A DNA stretch of 12,251 nt. Source: Anaerolineae bacterium (GTDB lineage Bacteria > Chloroflexota > Anaerolineae > B4-G1 > SLSP01). Each line of letters opens with the position of its first letter. Within the stretch, counting starts at the first letter, position 1. The notes beneath the pieces are model-generated. The model did not search any database. It had not been told where the DNA came from and saw only the letters and a list, made by a program, of their open reading frames with translations. A program made the translations under genes and the position numbers. The DNA lies in contig PWUY01000306.1 of the NCBI GenBank assembly GCA_003562415.1, forward strand, positions 1 through 12,251, written 5' to 3'. Shown here in pieces: positions 4,009-5,853 of this stretch.

Positions 4009-4042
4009 AGAGGTCTCCTTTTTGGGTAAATGGGTGCCGATT

Positions 4043-4070
4043 ATGGTATGTCAAAGGCGTGAAAAGTCAA
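4043..4070 (-). promoter_or_regulatory. Candidate sigma-70-type promoter for tkt
   Basis: Minus strand reads TTGACT-16 nt-TACCAT (plus-strand agtcaa at 4065-4070, atggta at 4043-4048). The predicted start site would be about 25-30 nt upstream of the tkt ATG. This is a hexamer match only. Confidence 0.3.
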
Positions 4071-4077
4071 CGCGGGG

Positions 4078-4106
4078 TTGCATGGCGCGCGGGGGCGTGT
4101 TACAAT
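4078..4106 (+). promoter_or_regulatory. Candidate sigma-70-type promoter driving the low-GC two-gene cassette
   Basis: TTGCAT (4078-4083), a 17-nt spacer, then TACAAT (4101-4106). The predicted start site is near 4113. The resulting leader of about 134 nt would contain palindromic element copy B. Confidence 0.4.
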
Positions 4107-4118
4107 CGAGGTATACGG

Positions 4119-4181
4119 GCTTCCGAAGTCTTACAGAAAGCGTGCTAAATTTTGGGGCCTCTCAAAGACCTCGGAAGTCTA
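4119..4181. repeat. Copy B (degenerate) of the AGACTTC-N-GAAGTCT element: half-sites gCTTCCGAAGTCTt (4119-4132) and AGACcTCGGAAGTCTa (4166-4181) separated by 33 nt
   Basis: Read directly. It has the same C-centre then G-centre ordering as copies A and C, but with a long spacer and two mismatches. It lies in the divergent spacer between tkt and the cassette. Confidence 0.55.
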
Positions 4182-4246
4182 CCCGATTTCTTGAGAAGAT
4201 ACGAGGGTCACTTATTTTGACGGGTTTTCGAAGGGGGGGACTTTGT

Positions 4247-4576
4247 ATGAACACCACAGTGACAATGATAATTGAACCGTTCGTTCGGCGTGGGTTGTTT
4301 GCCAGTCCTGAGCAGGCTGTAACGGAAATGGCTCGTGATTATGTGTTGCGGCAAATTGAGCATCATCAGGCTATCGTTCAAAAACTACAAACCCGCTATG
4401 GAATGACTTATGAACAATTTGAGGATTACCTTCGCGCGCGTTCTGAGACTTTGCAAGCCGTCCCTGATCCGGCGCTCAACCTAGCGGTGATGGCGGAAGA
4501 GGACGACGCCCTAGATTGGAAAATTGCCCGCGAGATGCTGCGAAGCTGGCTAGGATTGCAAATTGAGCCGGTATGA
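4247..4576 (+). CDS. Small hypothetical protein (109 aa), first gene of the low-GC cassette; candidate antitoxin or adaptor-like partner
   Basis: ATG at 4247 is preceded by GGGGGGG 7 nt upstream. The translation is MNTTVTMIIEPFVRRGLFASPEQAVTEMARDYVLRQIEHHQAIVQKLQTRYGMTYEQFEDYLRARSETLQAVPDPALNLAVMAEEDDALDWKIAREMLRSWLGLQIEPV. The track ORF starting at 3932 is an in-frame upstream extension that overlaps tkt and the promoter region, so I trimmed it. The gene is about 48% GC against about 69% in the flanks. Its stop overlaps the next start (ATGA). Confidence 0.6.
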   Translation: MNTTVTMIIEPFVRRGLFASPEQAVTEMARDYVLRQIEHHQAIVQKLQTRYGMTYEQFEDYLRARSETLQAVPDPALNLAVMAEEDDALDWKIAREMLRSWLGLQIEPV

Positions 4577-4950
4577 ACACGCTTGCCCGCTTATTGAACC
4601 AGGTGGTCAGTGCGTTACAAACCTGGCCTGGCTGTGTGAATGTGCGTGTTTTGGAAACCCAACAGTTTTCTGATGTGCAATTTGCGCTTAAAGTGCGTGC
4701 TGAGACACATTCAGGGGCGACTTTACATGTGCGCTTGTATCAAAATCGTCAACATATTGATTACGCTTACCATTTGATCCACGAGCAATGCTCACTGCGT
4801 TGGGACAACAAAGAGCATTTTCCTACACTTTCGACATATCCCCATCATTTTCATACCGCTTCCGGTGAAGTGCAAGCTTCGCCGTTGACGGGCGATCCAA
4901 ATCACGATTTACCTCTGGTATTGCGCTTGATTTCTAAAATCATTGATTGA
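4573..4950 (+). CDS. Hypothetical protein (125 aa), second gene of the low-GC cassette; His-rich C-terminal motif (RWDNKEH...YPHHFH); possibly a DUF6516/TumE-like toxin family member, on weak recall
   Basis: A complete ORF, MNTLARLLNQVVSALQTWPGCVNVRVLETQQFSDVQFALKVRAETHSGATLHVRLYQNRQHIDYAYHLIHEQCSLRWDNKEHFPTLSTYPHHFHTASGEV... Its start sits on the stop of the upstream gene through a 4-nt ATGA overlap. Its low GC is shared with the partner gene. The family assignment comes from memory of an RWDN...H...PHHxH motif and is not verified. Confidence 0.55.
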   Translation: MNTLARLLNQVVSALQTWPGCVNVRVLETQQFSDVQFALKVRAETHSGATLHVRLYQNRQHIDYAYHLIHEQCSLRWDNKEHFPTLSTYPHHFHTASGEVQASPLTGDPNHDLPLVLRLISKIID

Positions 4951-4987
4951 TGGCTGTTAAACCCCGCCAAAAGCGTTGCTCTCACAC

Positions 4988-5023
4988 AAACCCGCGCCAG
5001 GCTGCATGACCTAGCGCGGGTTT
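4988..5023. terminator. Candidate bidirectional terminator hairpin between convergent genes: AAACCCGCGC, a 16-nt loop, then GCGCGGGTTT
   Basis: A perfect 10-bp GC-rich stem at 4988-4997 and 5014-5023. It lies between the cassette stop (4950, plus strand) and the SDR stop (5050, minus strand). The loop is long and only a short T-run follows, so the call is weak. Confidence 0.3.
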
Positions 5024-5049
5024 GCGTTGGGTGGAGTTATTACGCTTTT

Positions 5050-5853
5050 CTACCCCACCCCAATCGCCGCTTCCCCGCCATCCACCGGGATGACGTCGCC
5101 GGAAATCCACGCGACGCGCGGATCGGCCAGGGCGACGATGACCTGGGCCACGTCCTCCGGCGTGGTGAGGCGGCCGGCAGGATGGTGCGTCTGCACGGCG
5201 GCGAGGATGGCTTCGTGGCCGGGGATGGCGCGCAGGGCGGGGGTGTCGCACACGCCGGGCCGCAGGCAGTTGACGGCGATGCCGCGCGGCGCGAGTTCCA
5301 GCGCGAGTTGGCGCGCGTGCGCCTCGAGCGCGGCCTTCGCCGCCGAGACCGCGCCGTAGTTGGCGGTCGCCCGCTCCGCGCCCAGGCTGCTCAGGGCGTA
5401 GATGCGGCTCCCGCGCGCGAGCAGCCCGGCGTGCGTCAAATCCTGGCTCCAGTAGACGAGGCTGTGGGCCATCACGCGCAGGGTCATGTCCATTTGTTCC
5501 TCGGAGAGGGCTTTTTCTGCGGGATCATCTGCAATGTAGGGGCGCAGGCTGCCGAAGGCCAGCGAGTGGACGAGCAAGTGGAGGGGGGTGTCGCCGAGCG
5601 CCTCCGGGAGCGCGGCGATGACACGGGCGCGGCGTCGGGCGTCGGCGGCGTTGGTGTTGAAGAAGACGGCGCGCCGGCCGGCGGCCTCCACGTCGGCGAT
5701 GACGGCCTCGGCCTGCGCGATGCTGCGGCGCGGGTCGAGGTGGACGCCGCAGATGTGCATCCCGGCGGCGGCCAGCGCGCGCGCTATCGCCGCGCCGAAC
5801 CCGCTCGACGCGCCGAGGATCAAGGCCCAACGGTTTTCCAGGGATGGGGACAT
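5050..5853 (-). CDS. SDR-family oxidoreductase, enoyl-ACP reductase (FabI/FabL)-like
   Basis: A 267-aa ORF. It has a Gly-rich N-terminus (ALILGASSGFGAAIARALAAAG) and a catalytic Y-x6-K motif in a FabI-like context (LSSLGAERATANYGAVSAAKAALEAH), followed by ...NCLRPGVCDTPA. A GGAGG Shine-Dalgarno motif lies 5 nt upstream (minus strand: taGGAGGttcctATG). Confidence 0.85.
   Translation of the reverse strand: MSPSLENRWALILGASSGFGAAIARALAAAGMHICGVHLDPRRSIAQAEAVIADVEAAGRRAVFFNTNAADARRRARVIAALPEALGDTPLHLLVHSLAFGSLRPYIADDPAEKALSEEQMDMTLRVMAHSLVYWSQDLTHAGLLARGSRIYALSSLGAERATANYGAVSAAKAALEAHARQLALELAPRGIAVNCLRPGVCDTPALRAIPGHEAILAAVQTHHPAGRLTTPEDVAQVIVALADPRVAWISGDVIPVDGGEAAIGVG

Follow-up and report, generated by a model that had tools for sequence, protein, structure and literature searches.

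A short islet of low GC content in the DNA of an Anaerolineae bacterium raises the question of what its two small genes encode and whether they are native to the genome that carries them. The islet lies on contig PWUY01000306.1 of assembly GCA_003562415.1, of which positions 1 to 12,251 of the forward strand, a stretch of 12,251 nucleotides (nt), were analyzed as a whole (hereafter the window). Two overlapping genes, hereafter gene 1 and gene 2, occupy the islet, flanked by a transketolase gene (tkt) on one side and a gene for a short-chain dehydrogenase/reductase (SDR) on the other. A preliminary description, made from the DNA letters and their open reading frames (ORFs), had taken the two genes for a toxin-antitoxin-like module of foreign origin. 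The results presented below indicate that the islet is probably a horizontally acquired, type II-like toxin-antitoxin module of the TumE-TumA superfamily (Durairaj et al. 2023, Nature 622:646, PMC10584680) that would target translation, with gene 2 as putative toxin and gene 1 as putative antitoxin. The toxin-antitoxin part of this reading is supported by homology of gene 2 to the validated family and by the natural inactivation of gene 2 at loci where gene 1 is intact, the latter being in keeping with gene 2 as the harmful partner.

Gene 2 belongs to the TumE/DUF6516 family

Gene 2 (4573-4950, + strand) encodes a protein of 125 amino acids (aa), a putative translation-targeting toxin. The protein matched Pfam family PF20126 (TumE, formerly DUF6516) with 52.6 bits against a cut-off of 23.4 (E 4.6e-14), residues 46-121 aligning with positions 4-77 of the 81 positions of the profile. 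The assignment to DUF6516/TumE, which had been put forward in the preliminary description, was thus correct, and at the Pfam level gene 2 belongs to this family. The PF20126 domain was present in all 120 listed homologues of gene 2; homologues with a query coverage of 80% or more were 47-66% identical to it. Hosts of these homologues were mostly Chloroflexota and Anaerolineae metagenome-assembled genomes (MAGs), with Thermodesulfobacteriota also represented. A further match was obtained with PDC-M44B, component B of the PADLOC candidate system PDC-M44 (E 1.6e-9).

The histidine-rich motif that had first drawn attention to the protein (RWDNKEH...YPHHFH) is present and forms the core of the family. 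In an alignment of 34 gene 2 sequences, segments R76-W-D-N-K-E-H82 and P90-H-H-F-H94 were conserved and constituted the most conserved part. Invariant residues included K40, R42, Y56, D63, Y64, R76, D78, N79, K80, E81, H92, S103 and D112, and W77, H82, H91, F93 and H94 were nearly invariant. Of these, R76, D78, N79, K80, E81 and H92 offer targets for mutagenesis of a putative nuclease activity.

To our knowledge, TumE-TumA is a recently defined superfamily, the subject of a single experimental paper and with no solved structure. An AlphaFold2 model of gene 2, with a predicted local distance difference test score (pLDDT) of 91.1 and a predicted template modelling score (pTM) of 0.85, consisted of a helix (4-17), seven strands (21-31, 36-45, 50-58, 61-70, 73-79, 91-94 and 100-102) and a second helix (109-124). 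This predicted fold, which had no confident match in the PDB, agrees with the alpha+beta fold described for TumE, in which two helices are packed against a seven-stranded antiparallel sheet and for which no confident PDB match was reported either (PMC10584680). The relationship was also evident in profile comparisons. When the gene 2 family profile (A2) was aligned with a PGAP-annotated TumE toxin encoded by a Nostoc plasmid, hhalign returned a probability of 96.4% (E 1.1e-9) and placed LRWDNKEHFPxLSxxPHHFH opposite FRYDSTPHFPDISTFPHHKH, the pattern R[WY]D..HFP..S.[FY]PHH.H being common to gene 2 and the Nostoc protein.

The gene pair recurs as a unit in which gene 2 is repeatedly lost

Gene 1 (4247-4576, + strand) precedes gene 2 in the same orientation. 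As described from the outset, the two co-directional genes, of 109 and 125 codons for amino acids, are joined by an ATGA start/stop overlap at 4573-4576 (+ strand), an arrangement seen in the sequence that suggests translational coupling. A set of 83 loci was used, 80 of them gathered by a metagenome scan with a gene 1 profile and three more being L003-L005. Intact pairs were found at 42 of these loci, and 36 of the 42 had the 4-nt overlap. The identities of the two proteins to their counterparts in the window were correlated (r = 0.90), and in most loci with room for a neighbour, gene 1 lay directly upstream of a TumE gene only.

The pair, which recurred at about 60 metagenomic loci, occurred in several phyla, including Chloroflexota, Thermodesulfobacteriota and other lineages, and its neighbourhoods were unrelated: DnaA/HNH-type genes at L003, sugar transport and trehalose genes at L004, and glycine cleavage genes at L165-L167. 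At L165 and L166 the pair also adjoined genes with patatin, nSTAND and ABC-type matches. At another locus (L172, 58-2581), the gene 1/TumE pair was followed by an NTP_transf_2 (MNT) and HEPN pair and then by a second TumE gene, of 139 aa and in opposite orientation, with a different upstream partner of 89 aa. No relative was found among the 2.9 million viral contigs of IMG/VR, and PHROGs returned no match. The sole TumE-like match among 50,697 phage records (H5), a weak one, was to a hypothetical protein encoded by Archaeoglobus profundus pleomorphic provirus 1 (BK065154.1, 7229-7447) and covered 57% of gene 2 at 30% identity (E 4e-4). A plasmid search yielded four distant TumE matches, on cyanobacterial plasmids, and no match to gene 1.

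Decay within the pair was asymmetric. In the population carrying the closest homologue of gene 1 (77% identity, 20 contigs; L169, 1660-2040, L170 and L171), gene 1 was intact and gene 2 had a nonsense codon at position 9. This TumE gene, otherwise intact, is either a recent pseudogene or the source of an N-terminally shortened product. At L166, gene 2 was truncated beside an intact gene 1, and in the syntenic loci L165 and L167 gene 2 was intact. Gene 2 was deleted or frameshifted at five further loci (L097, L117, L118, L122 and L125) and was absent despite sufficient room at four others (L094, L104, L107 and L134), gene 1 being intact at all nine. The reverse pattern, a broken gene 1 beside an intact gene 2, was found at one locus at most (L141); truncated copies of gene 1 always stood without an intact gene 2, L141 possibly excepted. 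Repeated inactivation of gene 2 next to an intact gene 1 fits the view that gene 2 is the toxic partner, and these natural nonsense, frameshift and deletion alleles provide independent support, from sequence alone, for toxicity in this subfamily.

Composition and origin of the pair

The drop in GC content on which the suspicion of foreign origin had been partly based was confirmed by 300-nt windows, which gave 0.44-0.52 over about 4050-4950 and 0.62-0.76 on both sides, and by GC content at third codon positions (GC3) gene by gene. The two genes had GC contents of 0.46-0.50 (gene 1, GC 0.50 and GC3 0.50; gene 2, GC 0.46 and GC3 0.44), in flanks of about 0.68-0.73. The GC3 of the host genes, namely tkt, SDR, the gene for a major vault protein (MVP) homologue, the guanylate kinase gene gmk and those for a rhomboid protease and a glycosyltransferase, was 0.80-0.90. 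The cassette therefore falls short of the host genes by 0.35-0.45 in GC3, that is, the contrast sits at synonymous sites. Since the intergenic DNA of this contig has a GC content of 0.45-0.56 in itself, the true anomaly comprises about 700 nt of coding sequence; the low-GC islet stood as a feature, and its extent of about 1 kb did not.

In comparisons restricted to 27 loci having at least 3 kb of flank, GC content of the cassette was below that of its flanks in most cases, by a mean of -0.055, and the difference of -0.20 in the window was the largest contrast of all. Because cassettes elsewhere are also below their flanks, part of the difference could be intrinsic to the family. Combined, the GC3 gap and the presence of the same two-gene unit in unrelated neighbourhoods of Chloroflexota, Thermodesulfobacteriota and other lineages support the horizontal acquisition of the gene pair, in agreement with the foreign origin first proposed. 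The locus represents a clear case of recent acquisition, in which codon usage is unameliorated in a Thermoflexales genome of about 70% GC.

The genomic setting was explored by a transketolase scan of 185,579 species genomes, which recovered the source contig (MAG Thermoflexales bacterium CSSed165cm_611, SLSP01000316.1) and 79 relatives. The nearest of these, with 77-78% transketolase identity, did not share the gene order of the window and were thus uninformative as to an empty site; none of the relatives at 72-78% identity carried SDR, MVP or the cassette beside tkt. No integrase or transposase genes were present in the window, and no convincing direct repeats or target-site duplications flanked the islet.

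Gene 1 encodes an acidic, all-helical protein of an uncharacterised family

Gene 1 encodes a putative antitoxin of 109 aa, an acidic four-helix protein with a pI of 4.8 (median of the family, 4.96). Family searches in Pfam, NCBIfam and PADLOC, which placed gene 2 as given above, left gene 1 without a family. For gene 1, PHROGs likewise gave no assignment, the same held for 34 close and 29 distant members of its family, and no match was obtained in NCBIfam at E <= 1. The initial portrait of a small acidic helical protein was accurate, and the protein could not be assigned to a known antitoxin family. The family of gene 1 is compact and strongly conserved: 137 clusters were found at E <= 1e-3 among 1.84 billion representatives, the 120 homologues listed showed 63-78% identity, and mean column identity was 64%. 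The negative charge clusters in the C-terminal half of the protein, which holds a nearly invariant acidic and aromatic helix, EEDDALDWKIAREML.

Two alternative versions of gene 1 were considered and discarded. An in-frame upstream extension (ORF 3932-4576, with a TTG start) would overlap the start of tkt and the promoter region, and all homologues begin at an ATG equivalent to that at 4247. A ribbon-helix-helix N-terminus, as the pattern G-x-F-x-S-x-E-x-A could suggest, did not agree with the structural model, in which there is no N-terminal strand and just two residues precede helix 1.

When the gene 1 family was set against the alignment of annotated TumA proteins (76 aa), the two could be laid out colinearly from end to end, with three short motifs, visible by eye only: [FY].S..[DE]A[LV], [FY]E.[KQ].[GK]M.[FS]E.F and DD..EW. 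Such a relationship between gene 1 and TumA is a lead and not a result.

A probable toxin-antitoxin module and the alternatives to it

Published work provides the basis for a mechanism. Six gammaproteobacterial TumE proteins were toxic in E. coli and were neutralised by their upstream partners; one TumE lowered the incorporation of 35S-methionine, indicating inhibition of translation, and an RNase activity of TumE was put forward as a proposal only (PMC10584680). By analogy, gene 1 would be translated first and gene 2 would follow by coupling through the ATGA overlap. The acidic helical product of gene 1 would most likely bind the toxin directly and so neutralise it, the contact being made, probably, by its acidic and aromatic helix at the C-terminal end. 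When free, the product of gene 2 would be expected, from its homology to tested members, to arrest growth by blocking protein synthesis, and it would probably act on RNA by means of the invariant R-W-D-N-K-E-H / P-H-H-F-H cluster (R76-H94).

The likeness to described TumE-TumA systems extends to several traits. Gene 2 has the Pfam domain, a predicted fold of two helices and seven strands and the signature RxD...HFP...PHHxH, and a small partner gene precedes and overlaps it, as in clusters 1, 2, 4 and 6 (PMC10584680); like TumA, gene 1 stands immediately upstream of TumE and is co-inherited with it. Differences were noted as well. Gene 2 was about 31% identical to an annotated TumE and scored below the cut-off of the corresponding NCBIfam equivalog; gene 1, with 109 aa and an all-helical fold, is longer than the annotated TumA of 76 aa and not significantly similar to it, and it did not show the RelB-like or DNA-binding fold reported for the partner in cluster 1. 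The pair annotated by PGAP as TumA/TumE on plasmid pC052_D of Nostoc sp. C052 (WP_179070367.1 / WP_179070366.1) has the same gene order, an overlapping small upstream gene and, in the upstream protein, the three colinear short motifs. By contrast, it is plasmid-borne, its overlap is of 11 nt instead of 4, and the similarity of the partners is marginal (hhalign score 16-18, probability 2-4%). With classical type II modules whose toxins are RNases (RelBE, HigBA, MazEF), the pair shares two small, co-directional and coupled genes with that for the acidic antitoxin first, a patchy distribution, horizontal transfer, and antitoxins orphaned by the decay of the neighbouring toxin gene. Between TumE clusters, the partners were described as diverse and unrelated (PMC10584680). 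Because unrelated hypothetical partners have thus already been reported, the locus is an ordinary case of TumE-TumA rather than a separate variant, and the pair is an ordinary member of the superfamily except for its uncharacterised partner family.

Several observations weigh against the assignment as a toxin-antitoxin module. The available toxicity data cover gammaproteobacterial proteins of subcluster 1a only (PMC10584680). With the NCBIfam TumE equivalog NF045777, gene 2 reached 35.9 bits, under the cut-off of 90; judged by this profile, gene 2 is not an equivalog of the tested TumE subfamily, and functional equivalence to TumE is an extrapolation. No ribbon-helix-helix, helix-turn-helix or RelB-like fold was recognised in gene 1, and the autoregulation usual for antitoxins is consequently left with no visible basis. 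The comparison of gene 1 with annotated TumA was not significant, with hhalign probabilities of 0.3% (A1 against one TumA), 2.1% (A3 against A4) and 4.1% (a short branch of the gene 1 family); the scores of 16-18 were reached by 2 of 120 column shuffles for the short branch and by 8 of 120 for the full A3 alignment. At 38 of 41 loci, gene 1 was the better conserved of the two genes, an uncommon pattern for an antitoxin. Both this and the survival of gene 1 after the loss of gene 2 lie outside the textbook picture of toxin-antitoxin modules. Since the loci were gathered with gene 1 as the probe, the asymmetry of decay is biased toward an intact gene 1. As to the acquisition, neither a donor nor an empty site was found, and no other cassette exceeded about 71% nucleotide identity.

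Other explanations account for some of these observations. Many toxin-antitoxin modules act in defence, and the pair could primarily be an anti-phage module of the abortive-infection type, in which infection would free the TumE-like effector and translation would be shut down; this differs from an addiction module in biological role, not necessarily in mechanism. The match of gene 2 to PDC-M44B points in that direction, as do the patatin, nSTAND and ABC-type genes next to the pairs at L165 and L166 and the MNT-HEPN genes next to that at L172. However, PDC-M44 itself is only a candidate system, and it is incomplete here: neither gene 1 nor 34 members of its family matched PDC-M44A or any other PADLOC model, so that PDC-M44 would not be called at this locus. 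Moreover, the neighbours in the window encode a transketolase, a dehydrogenase and a vault-protein homologue, with no defence genes among them, and neither the viral contigs nor PHROGs held a relative. A primary role in defence appears unlikely on this balance. Clearly less probable still is that gene 1 is the functionally important protein, for example a regulator or adaptor with an independent function in the cell, the TumE-like protein being accessory or dispensable. Its higher conservation, its integrity where gene 2 has been lost and the compactness of its family would all agree with such a role. Yet orphan antitoxins beside decayed toxins are an expected outcome at toxin-antitoxin loci, gene 1 has no recognisable functional domain, at most loci with room for a neighbour it stands solely upstream of a TumE gene, and truncated copies of gene 1 do exist, with the distribution given above. 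Finally, an ordinary pair of small, vertically inherited genes, with a low GC content due to amino-acid content or weak expression, is scarcely tenable. The slight GC deficit of cassettes in most genomes would be expected from it, but the contrast in the window lies at synonymous positions (GC3 of 0.44-0.50 versus 0.80-0.90), the relatives at 72-78% transketolase identity lack the pair, the SDR gene and the MVP gene beside tkt, and the pair occurs in several phyla and in unrelated contexts.

Within the TumE-TumA reading, the nature of gene 1 leaves room for variants. It is possible, if somewhat doubtful, that its family makes up a separate class of TumE partners, acidic, all-helical, without a DNA-binding domain, better conserved than the toxin and outlasting it, that brings a mode of control or a second function foreign to the validated TumA proteins. 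One possibility is that gene 1 is a nucleic-acid mimic that blocks the RNA site of the toxin; another is that it senses a phage or stress signal, the pair being a translation-shutoff defence module. Gene 1 could also be an extended, deeply diverged TumA, which, if true, would unite partner families now held to be unrelated around a toxin-binding helix with DD..EW. The locus leaves current understanding unchanged; its value lies mainly in annotation and in the lead it offers to specialists in toxin-antitoxin systems, pointing to a well-populated, Chloroflexota-centred TumE subfamily with a partner protein of its own.

Expression signals and repeats around the pair

Upstream of gene 1, the sequence TTGCAT-17-TACAAT (4078-4106, + strand) lies 141 nt 5' of the ATG and is a plausible promoter, as judged from its letters. 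The preliminary description had rated it a strong match: the sequence is present, and its strength was overstated, since it agrees with the consensus at 8 of 12 positions and was missing from the list of a consensus scan. A TG precedes the -10 box, which makes up an extended -10 element, TGTTACAAT, at 4098-4106. Among 61 distinct upstream regions from related cassettes, 17 had an element of this type, TGnTAnAAT, 31-96 nt from the start codon, whereas 0.8 were expected from shuffled sequences. The distance of 141 nt in the window exceeds this range by a surplus of about the length of an inverted repeat at 4116-4183. The consensus scan listed an alternative promoter-like site, TTGAGA-16-TATTTT (4191-4218, + strand), 29 nt 5' of the ATG and with agreement at 9 of 12 positions; with two sites in the region against 1.1 expected, the evidence for it is weak. 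A purine-rich putative ribosome-binding stretch, AAGGGGGGGA (4231-4240, + strand), ends 6 nt before the start of gene 1, and GGAG(T) occurs at the same distance before the start in related cassettes. Beyond the -10 box and the ribosome-binding site, a set of 71 upstream regions showed no prominent conserved motif resembling an operator.

An identical 10-mer, GTATGAACAC, was observed at the starts of both genes (4245-4254 and 4571-4580), and both proteins begin with MNT; the coincidence is probably due to chance or to a shared initiation context.

The inverted repeat in the 5' leader (4116-4183), the only one there and noticed from the beginning as a palindromic repeat copy, proved to be real. 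It resembles repetitive extragenic palindromic (REP) elements and has degenerate arms, GGCTTCCGAAGTC at 4118-4130 and GACCTCGGAAGTC at 4167-4179, with a folding energy of -27.5 kcal/mol (z = -3.6). The leader of 143 nt as a whole was not unusually stable (z = -0.8), this hairpin being the only part of it that was. The REP-like element, GACTTCCGAAGTC paired with GACTTCGGAAGTC, occurred in three paired copies in the window, with 12 matches against 0.32 expected: after tkt (1956-1990), in the leader of the cassette (4118-4179) and between the SDR and MVP genes (5885-5915). The two perfect copies form hairpins of -32 to -34 kcal/mol (z = -7.8 and -9.1). The element was found in none of the 170 other loci fetched; it is a repeat of the host genome, neither part of the imported genes nor an operator of the cassette.

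The hairpin noted at the 3' end of the islet was likewise verified. It is GC-rich, separates gene 2 from the convergent SDR gene (4984-5027) and is terminator-like, without a T-run on the + strand. Folding energies were -27.4 kcal/mol on the + strand (z = -4.8) and -36.8 kcal/mol on the - strand (z = -7.8), so that it folds better on the strand of the SDR gene. A terminator scan listed no terminator, this hairpin included.

Flanking genes and other features of the window

Pfam matches identified both flanks of the islet as they had been named. The tkt gene (2005-4008, - strand; GC3 0.89), divergent from the cassette, encodes a protein with the Transketolase_N, Transket_pyr and Transketolase_C domains, and the SDR gene (5050-5853, - strand; GC3 0.90), convergent with gene 2, one with matches to adh_short_C2 and adh_short. 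On the opposite strand of the islet there was no ORF of at least 60 aa. Searches for RNA genes in the islet and the window gave no Rfam match at the gathering threshold, no tRNA and no tmRNA.

At the left end of the window, the longest ORF (322-1419, - strand) had a GC content of 0.89 at first codon positions and a GC3 of 0.52, with no Pfam match, as is typical when a frame is read wrongly in a high-GC genome. On the + strand, ORF 171-929 or ORF 999-1715 is probably the true gene.

A second patch of low GC content (9112-9399, 0.48) is intergenic and lies upstream of the guanylate kinase gene. It contains a heptamer array, GAAACGT/CAAACGT, at 9153-9192 and an inverted array at 9282-9314, the two being 82% complementary, and it matched no Rfam family and no tRNA.

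Next to the SDR gene, an ORF of 879 aa (5925-8564, - strand; GC3 0.88) encodes a full-length homologue of the eukaryotic major vault protein, with Pfam matches to the Vault repeats (E 2.6e-66), the MVP shoulder domain (E 1.1e-51), Vault_2, Vault_3 and Vault_4. Bacterial homologues of this protein have already been described (bioRxiv 10.1101/872010) and are known but uncommon.

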